Assembly (NCBI RefSeq): GCF_000014265.1
Contig: NC_008312.1
Location: 6,240,001-6,272,000 of the forward strand
Source of the DNA: Trichodesmium erythraeum IMS101
GTDB lineage: Bacteria; Cyanobacteriota; Cyanobacteriia; Cyanobacteriales; Microcoleaceae
Length of the DNA: 32,000 nucleotides
Direction of reading: 5' to 3'
Shown here: in pieces, positions 15,560 to 24,926 of the stretch
How the letters are laid out: every line of letters starts with the position of its first letter
How positions within the stretch are numbered: position 1 is the first letter of the stretch
Made by a program: the position numbers and the translations under genes
The notes under the pieces: generated by a model
Told to the model about the DNA's origin: nothing
The model's input: only the letters and a program-made list of their open reading frames with translations
The model's database searches: none

Positions 15560-15930
15560 ATTGAGATCCTCCCCAGCTGTTAGGCACGCTTAAACCACCC
15601 AGCCTTAGCTCCGATGAGGGTTAACTTTTGATAGGCTGCCACACCTCGACCTATTGCTGGGGGGTGAGTTACACTTGCTTCTACATCTGTTGTTTGTATC
15701 CTTTTGCCCAAAGAGGGACTAATATATTTATTTCTTCATTTTCATCACGGTCGTGTTTTGCAGCACAGTTGAAAAATTCCCATTCTTACCCCTGAAAGGT
15801 CTAACTTTCTAACTTTAAAACCACAACAAGAGCAAATTTGAGATGTGGGTTATGTCCGACTAATTACTCTGAAATCACGACCATATTTTTCTGCAAATCC
15901 ATATCTAACAGTATTCTAGATTGTCTTGAA
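15560..15930 (-). mobile_element. tnpB: TnpB (IS200/IS605-family OrfB, RuvC/Zn-finger C-terminal part) fragment
   Basis: With frameshifts the minus strand reads ...RYGFAEKYGRDFRVISRT*PTSQICSCCGFKVRKLDLS..REWEFFNCAAKHDRDENEEINIL.... This is the TnpB signature SSQ.CS.CG....L.LS.R.W.C..CG..HDRD.NAA.NI. The N-terminal two-thirds of the gene are missing. Confidence 0.65.
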
Positions 15931-16375
15931 CCTAGTTAGAGTTGATAGGGGTGTTTCCATTCCTATCTTCTACTGTTTTCCAGTACTTGTCCATATTTAT
16001 GCTCCTATTTCCTTTAGATTTAGCCCAAGTTCTTAATTTTTGGCAAACAAAGTGATCTAGTAAAAAAAATGTTTCCTTGCTGACTACAGATGAGTAATAG
16101 TTTGACCATCCTCTAATTATTGGGTTCAGCTTAATTATTAAAGCAGCTTGTGGCGAAGTCTTTAGGATATCTATTACTTACTTTTGTGATTCTTGGACAA
16201 TGGGCCTTGATTTTCTTCTTAGAGGTTATTATTAGTGTTTTGAAACCTAGTGGTTATTCATTTGATTTACATACAGATATGTAATTTCCTACCTTGTGCT
16301 GTTGTATTTTGCTGGCCTTGTTGATAAAGCTTTTGCTTAAACGAAGCCTTACTATTTTTTTGACCTCAATACTTA
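15931..16375 (-). mobile_element. Group II intron reverse-transcriptase/maturase fragment (thumb / domain X only)
   Basis: The minus strand reads ...PLGFKTLIITSKKKIKAHCPRI...SPQAALIIKLNPIIRGWSNYYSSVVSKETFFLLDHFVCQKLRTWAKSKGNRSINMDKYWKTVEDRNGN.... LNPIIRGW.NYY...SK..F..LD......LR.WA is the hallmark maturase motif. Stops and frameshifts are present. The RT palm/fingers and the intron RNA domains are absent. Confidence 0.7.
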
Positions 16376-19666: not shown

Positions 19667-21055
19667 TTTGTGGTAGTTAGTTTTTCGCTTTTAGCTTTTA
19701 ACTATTAGTCGGTTTTGTTGACCTTGATGTATTGTTTTATTTTTTGAGTTTGATACTAGAAAATTGCATAGCTTTTTCTTGAGTTAAACAGGTTCCAGTT
19801 AGAAAATAGCCAAAAATAATAATTATGTTAAGAAACTGGGTTTCTTGTTTTGGTATTTAATTACTGTTGAAGATAAAAATATCGCTTTTATAACATTTAT
19901 CAAAAACTTCTCAGCCCATATCTTGAGTAGGATACCCACACTAACCCCTCCCATGAGGGCAGGGCTATTTCATTTGAAGCTTTTATATAAAAAAAATAGT
20001 TGGTCAATGTAATTATTTTTTTTACTTATCAACTGTTTTTTTGTATAAAATCGTGTATATAAATATTCTAATTAAACAGCTCAAAAAAATCCATGATTTC
20101 GGTAAATATCAAGGCTAAAGAAATGAATTGTTGTTAATCTTAATGATAACTATTCTGATATCTATGTCTTAATATACATCTATTTTTGATTCTTGGTGAT
20201 TTGCCTTTAGCTAATAAATCAAATATTATGAATTTTTCAATATTTATCCAGAAAAAGTATCATCATCTTCAACAATTTATTTGAAAATAAAACGAATAAA
20301 TTTTCTGAATACTCTTTAGGATTTTAATGAATAGGGAAGAAAATAATTTTGATATAATTGATTGCAAAAATGGCTGGCTGTTGATGCTCAAGGTTTCAGA
20401 AATACTCTTACTAATTTTCACAATAATCAGCAAAATTTTGTTTCAATGATTTCATTATTTAATCAAAATAGTGGATCTTTTTTTTTCTTAAAATTGTTGA
20501 AAATAAAAAACTATCATAAATCCAACAAGTGCAATACTTTATATCAAATATTTACTTCACAATACTGTTTTTATGATGGATTATTGAAATTGTCAAAAAC
20601 CACTCAATTAATTACACAAATAAACAATAACTATTTAATTGCTGTTCAAAAATTAGCCAAATTTATCAAGGCAGATTACAACCCATGGTCAAAATATTTT
20701 ATACTATAATTTATGGCTATTTTCTTGACCTAAACTTACTTAATAAGAAAGCCAATTTTTTAAATATTTATGAATAATTTGACATTGTGCGATCGCTGAT
20801 AAAAAAAATTATTAAAAAGCAACAGAGTAAACAGCTTAAACTAGAGAGTTACAGCTAAATTAACTAGATATTTAATAGATTTTTCTAAAAACTTAATGAA
20901 CTCAATTTTATTAGGTGAATAATTATTAAAGATACTTATTATATAATTCTTCTTTTAAAGTTTAATTATTTTTTTTCGGATTTGGCGATCGCTACTATGA
21001 AAGAGCGATAGTCAATCTAAAAATAAATTTTTTATTGGGAATAGAACGGAGTGGA

Positions 21056-21090
21056 AAGAGGCAATCTCTATTACTGTGAGATTGCTTCTT
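21056..21090. other. 13-bp-stem hairpin (AAGAGGCAATCTC-n9-GAGATTGCTTCTT) 54 nt downstream of the cassette's last gene
   Basis: Read directly. There is one G.U (plus strand) or A.C (minus strand) position and no trailing U-run on the minus strand. A related AAAGAGGCAATTCTCTT occurs at about 14620, so it may be a small dispersed repeat rather than a terminator. Confidence 0.4.
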
Positions 21091-21143
21091 GAGGTTTATA
21101 ATAACAATTATTTAACCATAATTTATTTTAAATAAAAGTCAAA

Positions 21144-21545
21144 TCAATCATCAAATTTAACACTTATTTCAGCGCTACCTTTAGTCTTTATTTCATCTAG
21201 AATCTCAGTCGGAATATTTGTCACTCTCTTGACTGTAGCACTTGTTGTATTGAGAAAACTTTTTTCTCCTTTTTTACTGTAAGTTTTAATTTCTATCAAT
21301 TCTTTTTGGTCATCAAGAATAAGACGGCTTCCCAACACAGAATATCCTTCTTGTTCAATTCTTGTATGGATATTTTCAATATCTTCCTCCAGTAAAGCAA
21401 AATTTAAAGTTTCCCTCTGGATACTATTCAAAGTATCAATATCAACAACATTTTCTTGTAATGCTTGTGATATTTTTTCCCCTGCATTTTTAACAGTATT
21501 GAAAAATTCACCAAACTTATTTCCTAAATTGTTTGCTTTTTTCAT
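21144..21545 (-). CDS. Cassette gene C: 133-aa soluble hypothetical protein
   Basis: ATG start preceded by AGGAGG with a 6-nt spacer. No hydrophobic segment. N-half is helical-looking (GEFFNTVKNAGEKISQALQENV...), and the C-half is beta-like and ends VKRVTNIPTEILDEIKTKGSAEISVKFDD. No family recognised. Confidence 0.75.
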   Translation of the reverse strand: MKKANNLGNKFGEFFNTVKNAGEKISQALQENVVDIDTLNSIQRETLNFALLEEDIENIHTRIEQEGYSVLGSRLILDDQKELIEIKTYSKKGEKSFLNTTSATVKRVTNIPTEILDEIKTKGSAEISVKFDD

Positions 21546-21551
21546 AGATAT

Positions 21552-21557
21552 CCTCCT
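21552..21557 (-). promoter_or_regulatory. Shine-Dalgarno AGGAGG for gene C
   Basis: The minus strand reads ...TTTTTTCAGGAGGATATCTATG, with 6 nt between the SD and the ATG (21545-21543). Confidence 0.6.
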
Positions 21558-21609
21558 GAAAAAAATTAAAGTTTTTTTGAATCATTTTGTATTAACTTTA
21601 GTTGTTACT

Positions 21610-21957
21610 TTAAGTACCTCTTCGGCCTAACTCCAGCTTTGCTTTGTATTCGAGTTGATCCTCTAAGTCTTGAGGAACATCTAAGGGATCAATTTCCTCT
21701 TGGTCTGATAAAAGTCTTGTAGTTTTGTCATAAATATTTCTAGCAAAAATTTCAACTCTTTTGTAAATGCGTTTGCCTTTTTTAACTAGATAAACAATAG
21801 CATCAGAAGTTACCTCAACGGCTCGGTTTATCAAATCTAGTAGAGATTCTATTACGCGAGTAAACCAAGCTGTGATGTCATCCCAAAAATAACCAACAGC
21901 AGCACCACCAAAAAAACTTAAACCTATAATTGTCCAAGTTATAGGATCTATCGGCAT
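21610..21957 (-). CDS. Cassette gene B: 115-aa single-pass membrane protein
   Basis: ATG start 3 nt after the stop of the AAA+ gene. One N-terminal TM helix (PITWTIIGLSFFGGAAVGYFW), then an amphipathic helix and an acidic/basic tail ...EEIDPLDVPQDLEDQLEYKAKLELGRRGT. No family recognised. Confidence 0.75.
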   Translation of the reverse strand: MPIDPITWTIIGLSFFGGAAVGYFWDDITAWFTRVIESLLDLINRAVEVTSDAIVYLVKKGKRIYKRVEIFARNIYDKTTRLLSDQEEIDPLDVPQDLEDQLEYKAKLELGRRGT

Positions 21958-21960
21958 AAT

Positions 21961-22920
21961 TTATTCCTCCTTTAAATTTGAATTATTTCCGTTTTCTACA
22001 ACAACTGTTTCTGCTAAATTAATTTTTTTGTGACGCAGTTTGATAGTTTTATATTTGTCGATTTCTTCATTTATAACTTCTTCATCAATAACTTTTACTT
22101 TACCAACTAGCAATTTTAATCCTAGCTTAATTGTGATGTTCCTAATATCTCCACCACATAATCCTTCACTAATTTCAGCCGCTCTTTCATAACTGATATT
22201 TTTAGGCACTTTTTCAGATATATGAAATTGCCAAAGTTGAGTTCTCATTTCTATATCTGGTACGGGAAACTCAACATTAAAAATAATTCTCCTTAAAAAA
22301 GCCTCATCATAATTTTCAAATAAGTTTGTGGCAAATATAATTACGCCATTAAACTTATCCATCAATGTTAATAAGGTGCTTTTGGCAGAGTTAACACCAT
22401 GATCTGCTGCTTGGGATAAGTTGGAAATTCTTTTACTTAATACAGCATCAGCTTCATCAAAAAATAATAAGCTCTGATTTTCTTCAGCTAGCTTGAAAAC
22501 CTTTGATAAATTCTTAGATGTACCACCTACTAATTCAGATTCTAATTCTCCATAATTAACCTTGATGATCTGAGTTTCTAACTTTTTGGCAATGGCTTCA
22601 GCAGTAATGCTTTTTCCTGTACCTGGTAATCCAAAAAAGTTGATGCTTAAACCATTACCTGTTTTGAGAAAACGATTAAATTCCCATTCAAGTAACAATT
22701 TATCCCGATTTTTTACATAAGCAATCATTTCTTTAATTTGCTCAATTGTAGTTTTTGACAAAGCTATTTCATCTAACGTCCATTTAGGTGTTTCGAGTAA
22801 ACTACTAACTTCATCTTTGGCATTAGACTTGTTTTTCTCCTTGACTAGTTCAAATTTCATGGTTTGATTTTCTGTTGGCTTTATTTTGCCATTGTTAGAG
22901 ATTTTTATAACAGCAAACAA
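21961..22920 (-). CDS. Cassette gene A: classical-clade AAA+ ATPase (SpoVK/COG0464-like, single AAA module)
   Basis: Walker A GLPGTGKS (22609-22632), Walker B LLFFDEAD, sensor-1 IIFATN, arginine-finger region DEAFLRR, sensor-2 GGDIRN. The ~90-aa N-terminal region reads WTLDEIALSKTTIEQIKEMIAYVKNRDKLLLEWEF. The track start at 22920 is TTG; the first in-frame ATG is at 22860 (MKFELVKEK...), giving 299 aa. Confidence 0.9.
   Translation of the reverse strand: MFAVIKISNNGKIKPTENQTMKFELVKEKNKSNAKDEVSSLLETPKWTLDEIALSKTTIEQIKEMIAYVKNRDKLLLEWEFNRFLKTGNGLSINFFGLPGTGKSITAEAIAKKLETQIIKVNYGELESELVGGTSKNLSKVFKLAEENQSLLFFDEADAVLSKRISNLSQAADHGVNSAKSTLLTLMDKFNGVIIFATNLFENYDEAFLRRIIFNVEFPVPDIEMRTQLWQFHISEKVPKNISYERAAEISEGLCGGDIRNITIKLGLKLLVGKVKVIDEEVINEEIDKYKTIKLRHKKINLAETVVVENGNNSNLKEE
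21966..21972 (-). promoter_or_regulatory. Shine-Dalgarno AAGGAGG for gene B, embedded in the last codons of the AAA+ gene
   Basis: The minus strand reads ...AAT TTA AAG GAG GAA TAA ATT ATG, an 8-nt spacer. This layout is typical of translational coupling. Confidence 0.6.
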
Positions 22921-23145
22921 TACTATTCTAAATAAAAATAAGGCTTAATAATAGTGTAAAAAGTATGAACTTTACCCGTTCTATAAAAGTAGAAAAATTA
23001 CGAAAAGTATAGTACTTTTAAAATGACTTAGTTTAAATACAAAGTTTATTCTGGTGACACTATATTCCTAAAATTTTATTTCTAAAAGGGATTTAGGGTT
23101 TTAAGTAAATGGTCTATTAGAACGGGATTTAATATTAATTGATTT
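22921..23145. promoter_or_regulatory. Divergent control region between the AAA+ cassette and the NB-ARC gene, with AAAAGTA repeats and a palindrome
   Basis: AAAAGTA occurs at 22959-22965, 22985-22991 and 23003-23009, and inverted (TACTTTT) at 23013-23019. The last two form AAAAGTA-tag-TACTTTT. Promoter -10/-35 boxes could not be placed confidently in this AT-rich DNA. Confidence 0.45.
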
Positions 23146-24528
23146 ATGAATAGTGCAGAAGTCTTGCAATTAGTAGATAATTTAATTTTTGCTAAAACCG
23201 GAAAACATTTAGAAGATTTACAAAAAAATTTATTGAAAGGCACTATAGAGGGTAAGAAATATTCAGATATTGCTAAAGACATTGGTTTTAGTGACAGTCA
23301 TGTCAAAAATGTAGGACAAGAATTATGGAATATTCTCTCATTAGTCTTAGGTGAAAAAGTTAAGAAGTCTAATTTTAAAAGTGTATTTAGAAATATCAAA
23401 AGCCTTAATTTTTCATCGGCTATTATTTCGGGATATTGTCATGCTAACCCCACAGCTAATAATATTAATATTTTTTCAGATAGAGAGCGATCGCCTACTT
23501 CTATAGAAAATTCCCAAGAAACTAAAAATCAACCAAAAATTGATTTAGCTGAAGCACCCAACATTTTTAATTTCTACGATCGCTCTTCTGAATTAAAAAC
23601 TTTAGAAAACTGGATAGTAAAAGATTCATCTCGCCTCATTGCACTTTTAGGAATTAGTGGTATAGGCAAAACAACTCTAATACTGGAATTAATAAAACAA
23701 ATAGAAACTAATTTTAATTACATCATTTATCGGAGTCTGCGCTTTTCCCCTACTCTTGATATAACTCTTACTAAACTATTAAAAAATTTCCCCAACCAAG
23801 GAGATACTTACGAGAATATTGAAACCCAAATATCACAACTGCTCAACTGCTTACGTCAATATCGTTGTTTGATTGTTTTTGATGACTTACAAATACTTTT
23901 TTGTAGTGGAAAAATTGCCGGTCAATATCAAACTGAATATGAAAATTACCAGATATTTTTTCAGCTTATTGCCGAAATTAATCATCACAGTTGTTTAATA
24001 TTAAATAGTAGGGAAAAACCCATAGAAATAGCTCAACTAGAAACAAATAATAAGTATGTGCGATCGCTCATTTTAAGTAACTTAGGATTAGCAGCAAAAC
24101 AAATTCTCCAAAACCAGAAATTGTTAGACGAAGAAGCTTGGGAAAATTTAATTAATATCTATCAAGGTAACCCTCGTTGGATAGAATTTACTGGCACCAT
24201 GATTCAAGAATTATTTGACAATAGTGTTGCTAAATTTTTGTCATGGGAAAAAGTAATTTTCAGTGAGTCTTTAGTAGCAGAATTAGATAAAAATTTTCAA
24301 CGAATAACTCAGAATGAAAAAGCCATAATAATTCAACTTTCTCAAGCAAATAAACCAGTTACTTTGCATCAAATTGATAAAAATTTGGAGTTATCAACAT
24401 CAGACTTATTGAATGCTATACAGTCACTAAAAAGACGATTATTATTAGATATAAAACAAGAATATCAGACAACTTATTTTAGTTTAAATAAAGTCTGGAA
24501 ACAGTATATTCAAAATCAATCTACTTAG
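23146..24528 (+). CDS. STAND NTPase: N-terminal HTH-like module + NB-ARC + winged helix, with no C-terminal repeat sensor
   Basis: 460 aa. N-terminus: LEDLQKNLLKGTIEGKKYSDIAKDIGFSDSHVKNVGQELWNILSLVLGEKV. Walker A GISGIGKT (23650-23673), Walker B CLIVFDDL, SCLILNSREKP, YQGNPRWIE (the GNPLAL-type motif). It ends at ...YFSLNKVWKQYIQNQST. HIP1 at 23487-23494 and 24060-24067. Confidence 0.85.
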   Translation: MNSAEVLQLVDNLIFAKTGKHLEDLQKNLLKGTIEGKKYSDIAKDIGFSDSHVKNVGQELWNILSLVLGEKVKKSNFKSVFRNIKSLNFSSAIISGYCHANPTANNINIFSDRERSPTSIENSQETKNQPKIDLAEAPNIFNFYDRSSELKTLENWIVKDSSRLIALLGISGIGKTTLILELIKQIETNFNYIIYRSLRFSPTLDITLTKLLKNFPNQGDTYENIETQISQLLNCLRQYRCLIVFDDLQILFCSGKIAGQYQTEYENYQIFFQLIAEINHHSCLILNSREKPIEIAQLETNNKYVRSLILSNLGLAAKQILQNQKLLDEEAWENLINIYQGNPRWIEFTGTMIQELFDNSVAKFLSWEKVIFSESLVAELDKNFQRITQNEKAIIIQLSQANKPVTLHQIDKNLELSTSDLLNAIQSLKRRLLLDIKQEYQTTYFSLNKVWKQYIQNQST

Positions 24529-24530
24529 AT

Positions 24531-24926
24531 TCATATTTTCTTCAAAGCAGTAATAATTTGCTCATTAGCTTCAGGAAAAGTAAATCTATCTATCTCATCT
24601 AATGTTACCCACCTAAACTCATCACATTCTATAGCTTTTGGTATTCCCCGCAAGTAACGACAATGATATACATGAAGGATGAGTCTAATTTCAGAATAAT
24701 TATACTCTATTGTAATTAAATGCTTTTCTACTGCAACCTCAATTCCCAACTCCTCTAAAACTTCCCTTTTAATACAATTTTCTATTGTTTCACCAGCTTC
24801 TTTTTTACCTCCAGGAAATTCCCATAAACCACCAAACGAATCCCCTAATCTTCGTTTATCAATTAATATTTTTCCTGTTTCATCCCAGATGACAGCAACG
24901 CCAATTAACTTATTAGATAATGCCAT
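24531..24926 (-). CDS. mutT: Nudix hydrolase, MutT-type (8-oxo-dGTP/NTP pyrophosphohydrolase)
   Basis: 131 aa with the Nudix box GGKKEAGETIENCIKREVLEELGIEV (GX5EX7REUXEEXGU). It is convergent with the NB-ARC gene and the two stop codons are 2 nt apart. Confidence 0.85.
   Translation of the reverse strand: MALSNKLIGVAVIWDETGKILIDKRRLGDSFGGLWEFPGGKKEAGETIENCIKREVLEELGIEVAVEKHLITIEYNYSEIRLILHVYHCRYLRGIPKAIECDEFRWVTLDEIDRFTFPEANEQIITALKKI

Follow-up and report, generated by a model that had tools for sequence, protein, structure and literature searches.

What role is played by three closely packed genes of Trichodesmium erythraeum IMS101 that encode an AAA+ ATPase (A, ABG53066), a 115-amino-acid (aa) protein with an N-terminal hydrophobic helix (B, ABG53065) and a 133-aa soluble protein (C, ABG53064)? 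They lie in the stretch of DNA analysed here, hereafter the window, which covers 32,000 nucleotides of contig NC_008312.1 (positions 6,240,001 to 6,272,000), and they are preceded by the divergent gene of a STAND ATPase (S, ABG53067). A preliminary description of this DNA had seen in the three genes a candidate for an undescribed system in which the ATPase gates an effector, and in S a mere neighbour. We find that A, B and C are a genuine, tightly coupled operon conserved across cyanobacteria and that, together with S, they make up one four-gene accessory module specific to cyanobacteria, with Tery_4055 diverging from Tery_4054-4053-4052 (tags Tery_4054 for A and Tery_4055 for S were deduced from the adjacent tags and accessions).

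The first argument comes from synteny. We collected the contigs of B and C homologues, scanned species genomes with a C profile and then ran tblastn with all four proteins. About 20 cyanobacterial genera show the order S (divergent)-A-B-C, at more than 20 independent loci, and because one gene order recurs so many times, the arrangement is far beyond chance. The recurring layout consists of a divergent gene for a protein of about 450-475 aa with HTH_VMAP-M9 and NB-ARC domains, then of genes for an AAA protein of about 299 aa and for proteins of about 115 and 133 aa. Hence, the A-B-C cassette exists as a syntenic unit elsewhere, and S is a syntenic fourth component of the orthologous loci rather than a bystander. 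It is probably the regulator of the module. Homologues of B came from Oscillatoriales and Nostocales, those of C from many filamentous cyanobacteria. The C-profile scan and tblastn recovered S on the minus and A-B-C on the plus strand in Okeania (several genomes), Dapis, Microcoleaceae, Phormidium, Oscillatoria princeps, Oscillatoriaceae M33 and Oscillatoriales CG2_30. Planktothrix FACHB-1355 and Nostocales are further carriers, and a search with A adds Limnospira/Arthrospira, Microcystis (119 contigs) and Dolichospermum. Across loci, the A-B junction varies from a 22-nt gap to an 11-nt overlap.

Outside the Trichodesmium clade, the flanks of the module vary among genera, and toxin-antitoxin (TA) genes (PIN, HicA, ParE, BrnT, DUF433/DUF5615) flank it in most. 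By contrast, its position between the NUDIX gene and sasA-DUF2079 is common to T. thiebautii-like contigs, Dapis M229 and Microcoleaceae MO_207.B10. Since the position is syntenic there, the module is ancestral in the Trichodesmium clade, and the recent acquisition that had been offered earlier as one explanation of its intact open reading frames (ORFs) is unlikely.

In the window, the three co-oriented ORFs are present on the minus strand as first described, except for the start of A (Table 1). Read from TTG 22920, as had been proposed, A would span 21961..22920 and have 319 aa. This start was ruled out: all A orthologues are about 299 aa long and can be aligned from ATG 22860, and TTG 22920 falls within a conserved promoter-like region, upstream of an extended -10-like element that is likewise conserved. 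Therefore, the A-B-C unit ends at 22860, and the Walker A lysine first numbered K103 is K83, the former number holding only in the 319-aa reading. The signals at the gene junctions were all found again in the sequence. The TAA stop of A is followed after 3 nt by the ATG of B, AAGGAGG lies within the last codons of A, and AGGAGG lies 6 nt before the ATG of C (AGGAGG occurs 12 times in the window against 8.2 expected). Judged from this arrangement, the start of B is translationally coupled to A. About 60 nt past the stop of C, a hairpin that was not called by a terminator scan is a possible, non-canonical terminator.

Table 1. Features of the four-gene module and of its intergenic DNA (positions in the window)
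Feature	Position	Strand	Description
Gene C (Tery_4052)	21144..21545	minus	133 aa, soluble
Gene B (Tery_4053)	21610..21957	minus	115 aa, N-terminal hydrophobic helix
Gene A (Tery_4054)	21961..22860	minus	299 aa, single-module classical AAA+ ATPase
Gene S (Tery_4055)	23146..24528	plus	460 aa, minimal STAND NTPase, divergent from A
Hairpin	21061..21085	minus	8 bp, arms GCAATCTC / GAGATTGC, 9-nt loop, then CTCTTTCC; read from the sequence
Three tandem 9-nt boxes	22983..23009	minus	TACTTTTCG / TAATTTTTC / TACTTTTAT
Single box	22958..22965	minus	TACTTTTT within CATACTTTTTACAC; promoter-proximal, the tandem boxes lying about 20 nt upstream of it
Putative A-B-C promoter	22904..22932	minus	-35-like TTTAGA (22932-22927), TGt + TATAAA (22912-22904)

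By its sequence, A is a classical AAA+ ATPase. It matches PF00004 with 90.7 bits (gathering score 21.2, E 1.4e-25), and its catalytic motifs, reported earlier as intact, are indeed so and are invariant in 16 orthologues: Walker A GLPGTGKS (K83), Walker B FFDEADA (D135-E136), sensor-1 ATN (N179) and DEAFLRR in the second region of homology (SRH; arginines R190-R191). Pore loop 1, as read from the sequence, is L-V-G and has no aromatic residue, as in the D1 domain of p97. The latter is also the best match of A in the PDB (134 bits), where PAN and Vps4-like proteins are among the other matches. Furthermore, A matches CdvC of NCBIfam at 1e-24 and bears a COG0464-type (SpoVK/Ycf46/Vps4) annotation. 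Its strongest family match, which is also its best phage-family match, is phrog_3757 (function not assigned, E 1e-52), and its best PADLOC match is IetA (E 2e-36, residues 44-306). Against the NCBIfam model IteA_antiphage (NF042959), it reaches 115.5 bits for a cut-off of 510, a score that is barely above that of PAN (102 bits). The preliminary description had set the system apart from IetAS by its components; by hidden Markov models, A is in fact IetA-like, without being an IetA equivalog, and the PADLOC match does not go beyond general similarity among AAA proteins.

By its sequence, S is a STAND NTPase of the NB-ARC/AP-ATPase clade. It comprises a predicted N-terminal helix-turn-helix (HTH) region of about 90 aa, a low-complexity linker, an NB-ARC domain and a winged-helix end. 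Its Walker A (GISGIGKTT) and Walker B (LIVFDD) motifs are intact, and GxSGIGKT and hhhhDD are conserved in the alignment of S proteins. It matches NB-ARC (PF00931, 35.5 bits for a gathering score of 23.5, E 8.3e-9) and ATPase_2 (PF01637, 41.1 bits for a gathering score of 33.2, E 2.4e-10), and its residues 143-396 match PDB profiles of NB-ARC proteins and plant NLRs. Precomputed PF26355 (HTH_VMAP-M9) annotations were found in S of every locus that was called with its N-terminus, and residues 18-55 show a weak match to region 4 of sigma70-ECF factors (E 0.026, NCBIfam). No TPR, WD40 or LRR sensor repeats were found in S, which ends about 60 aa past the NB-ARC/winged-helix region. In PADLOC, it has weak matches to PDC-S27 and PDC-M16A (E 5e-6 or weaker) and matches no Avs model. 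An assignment to the antiviral STANDs of the Avs/AVAST type was rejected since the N-terminus is a predicted HTH and not an enzymatic effector, the repeat sensor is missing and no Avs model is matched.

In design, S resembles the STAND regulators MalT and AfsR/SARP-LAL. As in these proteins, an HTH, here a predicted one, is paired with an NB-ARC/AP-ATPase, the gene diverges from an operon, and tandem direct repeats occupy the spacer. However, S has no C-terminal sensor (TPR, WD40 or MalT-type) and its HTH family is neither LuxR nor SARP. In MalT/AfsR-type regulators, nucleotide-driven oligomerisation loads several HTHs onto repeated sites.

The spacer between S and A (285 bp in the window) contains one block that is conserved across genera. 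This block starts with 2-5 head-to-tail 9-nt units GTACTTTTC, followed by a spacer of about 20 nt, one more box and, about 35 nt further on, TTTAGGATAGnATTGTTTACTGGTATAAAA. The tandem boxes, with their 9-nt period and 2-5 copies, are conserved in 10 genera. The single box corresponds to the aligned column block CGTACTTTTCATAC of the spacer alignment and was also found by a DNA motif search. The sequence TACYTTYC is present in 22 copies, all on one strand, in 4157 bp of S-A spacers against 0.36 expected from the locus background, the motif having been derived from the same related sequences in which it was counted. We read TTTAGGATAGnATTGTTTACTGGTATAAAA, a block also conserved across genera, as a weak -35 element and an extended -10 element. 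In the window, 14 nt separate TTTAGA from TGt and 17 nt the two hexamers, about 45 nt upstream of ATG 22860; a consensus promoter scanner omits this putative promoter because position 6 of its -10 element is an A. On the other strand, an extended -10 element TGGTATAAT abuts the boxes and faces S in five genera, so that the boxes sit between two divergent promoters. The tandem boxes are a candidate operator for the HTH of S. In Microcystis (L033, 4755-4940), the S-A spacer is longer (492 bp) and includes a called 61-aa ORF without family hit. The boxes differ there (CACTTTTT / CAATTTTC) and the HTH of S is more divergent (36% identity), which may reflect co-variation of the boxes with the HTH.

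B has a Gly-rich hydrophobic helix near its N-terminus (residues ~6-24), next an amphipathic one and then a cytosolic β-rich domain (β-β-β-β-α-β), and its C-terminal threonine is invariant in a 15-sequence alignment. In C, residues 1-34 are predicted to be disordered and are followed by an α+β domain ending β-β-β-(β)-α-β. As anticipated, B has one N-terminal hydrophobic segment and C has none; the segment of B is marginal here and clear in orthologues (Kyte-Doolittle maxima over 19 residues of 1.45 in this strain vs 1.7-2.2). Neither protein has a hit in Pfam, NCBIfam, PADLOC or PHROGs, in agreement with the earlier view that they belong to no known family, and a type II TA family was rejected since no TA family of Pfam or NCBIfam was hit. 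AlphaFold2 models were obtained with a confidence (pLDDT) of 75 for B and 73 for C. Foldseek searches with these models (C against PDB and BFVD, B against PDB) gave nothing better than E ~0.02, and broad alignments of the two families retrieved nothing in PDB profile searches. Among 1.84 billion representatives, an exhaustive HMMER search with the profile of B retrieved only 75 clusters, almost all of them stand-alone proteins of about 110-120 aa.

These two orphan proteins probably have a C-terminal β-rich module in common. With broad profiles, hhalign aligns residues 66-111 of B to residues 84-128 of C (E 2.5e-4, probability 43%), the first, narrow profiles having given an insignificant value (E 0.023). 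The aligned region is centred on the helix motif [DN]-[IV]-P-x-[DE]-[IL], which takes the form N-I-P-x-[DE]-[IV]-x-x-E in the last ~45 residues of C, and the AlphaFold2 models of both proteins have the order β-β-β-α-β in common. Moreover, some loci carry additional B-like genes (B') whose products have no transmembrane (TM) segment. For instance, Okeania sp. SIO2C9 (L030, 4199-5861) has 5-6 tandem 331-bp repeats between B and C (their number is uncertain owing to N runs in the assembly), each encoding a B-like protein of about 71 aa without TM segment; each repeat opens with the same leader as gene C. Dapis M172 (L024, 5696-5857) has one extra TM-less B-like copy and Dolichospermum (L034, 6361-6699) an extra TM-less B paralogue of 112 aa, both between B and C. 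A further extra B-like gene without hydrophobic N-terminus was observed at L019 (158-334), again between B and C. The probable common domain of B and C and the amplification of TM-less B paralogues suggest that remodelling of a hetero-oligomer fits these data better than a simple toxin/antitoxin pair. A link to gas-vesicle clusters was considered, as many hosts are gas-vacuolate and B' occurs in tandem like gvpA, and was rejected: benthic, non-vacuolate hosts are numerous, and nothing in sequence or position connects the two.

In one metagenomic variant (JGI 3300035685; L039, 662-2029), a 455-aa protein carries HTH_3, TRADD-like_N (3.9e-17) and pentapeptide repeats fused in frame to a complete B. 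Its gene has the 3' end of an A-like gene on one side and a C-like gene on the other, and this single case could be a genuine fusion or result from a gene call that reads through. The TRADD-N adaptor is a hallmark of conflict systems predicted for multicellular bacteria, for which architectures of the HTH-TRADD-N-pentapeptide type have been described (PMC8195603). STANDs with an HTH are likewise part of conflict systems of cyanobacteria (Kaur et al. 2020, PMC7159879; 2021, PMC8195603).

All four genes are under purifying selection, A being by far the most constrained and B and C the fastest evolving. The ratios of nonsynonymous to synonymous substitution rates (dN/dS; Nei-Gojobori, window genes vs seven genomes) are 0.05-0.15 for A, 0.13-0.38 for S, 0.2-0.8 for B and 0.24-0.54 for C. 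Identity to the window protein is 80-94% for A in genera of Oscillatoriales and 62-78% elsewhere in the phylum, compared with 39-81% for S, 43-77% for B and 41-76% for C. The selection that had been suspected behind the uninterrupted ORFs is thus confirmed by dN/dS. The ORFs themselves are uninterrupted in the window, but not in sister lineages. In T. thiebautii-like populations, codon 82 of C is changed in frame from GAA to TAA (window equivalent 21300-21302; L036/L038, 6001-6399), an allele found in 148 index blocks of the sequence collection, and the comparison with these populations gives dN/dS values of 2.3 for C and 0.8 for B. GCA_000987385.1 (L037, 4184-6246) has a deletion that joins S (from residue 77) to A (from residue 205), and a frameshift in B. 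At the syntenic site between the NUDIX gene and sasA, Dapis sp. BLCC M229 (L025, 1703-2053) is left with a C fragment alone (residues 17-133). Okeania SIO1I7 (L023, 5274-6399) keeps an N-terminal fragment of S and C, without A or B, and S is frameshifted in a metagenome-assembled genome of Oscillatoriales. The module is thus decaying in the T. thiebautii-like sister lineage and intact in T. erythraeum; in decayed loci (Dapis M229, Okeania SIO1I7), C is the usual last survivor. Stops in sister strains, which the preliminary description had named beforehand as an argument against its proposal, are therefore present in T. thiebautii-like populations, and we read them as dispensability rather than as lack of function. 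Constraint while the genes are present, combined with frequent loss, is the pattern of accessory, conditionally useful genes.

In which circumstances would such genes be useful? We tentatively favour a conflict function of the four-gene module, by abortive infection, phage defence or an addiction-type arrest via B. This preference comes from the turnover of the module, its TA-rich flanks, the defence and phage affinities of A and the TRADD-N fusion. In such a module, S would be an NB-ARC STAND without sensor, with a sigma-region-4-like HTH as its output domain. Some trigger would cause S to oligomerise on the tandem boxes between the divergent promoters, and S would then switch the A-B-C operon and probably its own gene. 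Since S has no sensor domain, the signal would have to come via the NB-ARC/winged-helix region or via a partner, possibly C or B. A would be a hexameric AAA+ remodeller of the Vps4/Msp1/IetA kind, acting on hetero-oligomers of membrane-anchored B with soluble C (and with B' where present) that would be joined through the common β-module. It may extract or unfold membrane-anchored B, or disassemble the B-C(-B') hetero-oligomers; it would either keep B inactive or release and assemble it at the membrane, and the output would be an effect at the membrane. The more ambitious proposal of a cyanobacteria-wide immune or growth-arrest system, in which the STAND is an oligomerising transcription factor on 9-nt operators and A controls a new family of small β-rich proteins (B, amplifiable soluble B' and C) that assemble at the membrane to halt the cell, seems rather unlikely as a whole.

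Several observations weigh against a conflict function or against parts of this mechanism. The flanks of the module in Trichodesmium are housekeeping genes (sasA, mutT, sigma factor) and not a defence island. The conservation of A is housekeeping-like (80-94% between genera) and its gene tree roughly tracks taxonomy, which is unusual for fast-evolving immunity genes. Scans of IMG/VR with C and A found no relatives on viral contigs, the module is absent from PADLOC models except for a generic IetA-like hit, and a literature search for Tery_4052-4055 found no functional or expression reports. Concerning S, the search of its N-terminus against PDB profiles found no HTH match, and that it binds DNA through an HTH is something we infer from its sequence; the origin of the box motif, mentioned above, calls for the same caution. 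In addition, the hydrophobic segment of B is only marginally TM-like in this strain and the homology of B and C is unproven. Lastly, Pseudanabaena PCC 6802 (L035, 4392-5000) carries A-B-C without adjacent S. Upstream of A in this strain are genes for a 408-aa AraC-type (HTH_18) protein and a 121-aa secreted protein, and two CAGTGACTTTT boxes lie about 500 bp upstream of A.

The main rival, possible in our view and on the doubtful side, is a stress or proteostasis module without conflict role, in which S would be a stress-responsive transcription factor and A-B-C a machine for membrane quality control or remodelling, comparable in function to pspF-pspABC or Msp1/Vps4 and called on in certain physiological situations. 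The strong purifying selection and housekeeping-like conservation of A, roughly vertical inheritance with synteny within the Trichodesmium clade, and the housekeeping flanks in the window would all agree with such a role, as would a divergent regulator and operon with a conserved operator-like spacer and an S output that is an HTH and not a nuclease, a protease or a TIR domain. Like the pspF-pspABC locus, the module places a divergent ATPase-HTH regulator beside an operon for small single-pass membrane proteins and a soluble partner. However, the two are unrelated in sequence: PspF belongs to the sigma-54 enhancer-binding proteins and S to the NB-ARC STANDs, and A has no Psp counterpart. The likeness to remodellers of the meiotic clade and Msp1-Vps4 type (Vps4-ESCRT-III, CdvABC, Msp1/ATAD1) lies in the single AAA module of A, its D-E-A-F-L-R-R SRH and small, probably oligomerising partners of which one is membrane-anchored. 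By contrast, A has no MIT domain or TM anchor and has Leu for the aromatic residue of pore loop 1, and B and C are unlike ESCRT-III or CdvA, which leaves an analogy of mechanism only. A stress module would furthermore not be expected to show a patchy distribution, with repeated loss and pseudogenisation even within one genus, nor TA-rich variable flanks in other genera. Further points against it are that A finds its closest relatives in the libraries in a defence ATPase and a phage family, that a TRADD-N fusion variant exists, and that B and C evolve several times faster than A.

Less likely still is an addiction cassette of the IetAS kind, which we regard as quite improbable. IetAS is reportedly known first as a plasmid-stability pair. 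In this scheme, a toxic membrane protein B (or B + C) would be continuously neutralised by A, the module would persist through post-segregational killing and not through a benefit to its host, and S would be an add-on regulator. The best defence-library matches of A are IetA/IteA (PADLOC and NCBIfam), and A shares with IetA a single classical AAA+ module, a short N-terminal region and a gene position directly upstream of the partner gene; A and B are tightly coupled in expression, and TA genes surround the module in several genomes. However, membership of IetAS was rejected since A is far below the family cut-off (115 vs 510 bits) and there is no IetS subtilisin-like serine protease, no peptidase gene being found next to A in more than 20 loci. 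Instead, the unit contains two orphan small partners and a STAND gene, and strong conservation of four genes, among them a STAND, is not typical of TA pairs. No association of the module with plasmids or phages was found (IMG/VR scans). Moreover, loss of A with B kept is not expected of an addiction cassette, but B is also frameshifted in T. thiebautii H9-4. Finally, a domesticated remnant of a mobile-element or phage morphogenesis module, with C portal-like and A a phage AAA ATPase, is highly improbable: A does match phrog_3757 and 12/24 C homologues weakly match Phage_portal_3 over most of their length (best E 7.6e-4), but these scores from related sequences do not exceed 18.7 bits for a gathering score of 33.8, neither a portal nor any other Foldseek hit was found for C in PDB and BFVD, so that C as a portal fragment was rejected as sub-threshold and structurally unsupported, and there are no other phage genes in any locus and no IMG/VR hits.

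Is the module already known under another name? The HTH_VMAP-M9 tag was first defined in vWA-MoxR-associated proteins. This domain tag of S is the only feature in common with the vWA-MoxR/VMAP ternary systems (PMC7159879), and membership was rejected: no MoxR or vWA Pfam family was found in any orthologous neighbourhood, and A belongs to the classical AAA clade. The PADLOC run, for which no hit had been predicted, gave indeed none for B and C, but gave a generic IetA-like match for A and weak PDC matches for S. A literature search on Tery_4052-4055, cyanobacterial IetAS and Trichodesmium NB-ARC or programmed cell death did not retrieve a description of the module, and, as first supposed, no system of this composition was found in the libraries or literature searched. 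From sequence comparison, two protein families without known relatives and a distinctive cis-element would be new, and the module would otherwise be of a known kind, that of NTPase-gated conflict or stress modules.

The DNA around the module calls for a few remarks. The ORF-free flank noticed earlier beside the cassette corresponds to the 1477-bp gap between C and sasA (19667-21143, GC ~23-27%), which contains only short unsupported ORFs. No Rfam family, tRNA or clear repeat accounts for this gap, Rfam and tRNA scans of the whole window having found nothing, and it measures only about 670 bp in T. thiebautii-like contigs. On the other side, the ends of S and of the convergent NUDIX (mutT-like) gene are 2 nt apart (24528-24531), which leaves no room for separate terminators; this junction is preserved in other T. 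erythraeum-type contigs. Only about 37% of the window (1-32000) is taken up by ORFs of 100 aa or more, in line with the low coding density known for Trichodesmium. A 61-aa ORF at about 15930-16120 bears a group II intron maturase (GIIM) tag in the annotation, which suggests an intron remnant.

If a defence or growth-arrest function is true, the module would add a new gene set to prokaryotic immunity, made of a STAND with HTH output, an IetA-like AAA+ ATPase and two orphan families. In bloom-forming cyanobacteria (Trichodesmium, Microcystis, Limnospira, Dolichospermum), both the effector fold and the output logic of the STAND would then be new. Phage-host interactions and programmed cell death shape the collapse of blooms, and among the hosts of the module are drivers of nitrogen fixation in the sea (Trichodesmium) and of toxic blooms in fresh water (Microcystis, Dolichospermum, Planktothrix). 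The broken alleles of T. thiebautii-like populations and the intact copy of T. erythraeum offer a natural contrast. Even if the role of the module is physiological, its conserved operator-like boxes, a STAND without sensor and two small proteins that are probably paralogous would make it a tractable regulatory and mechanistic model.

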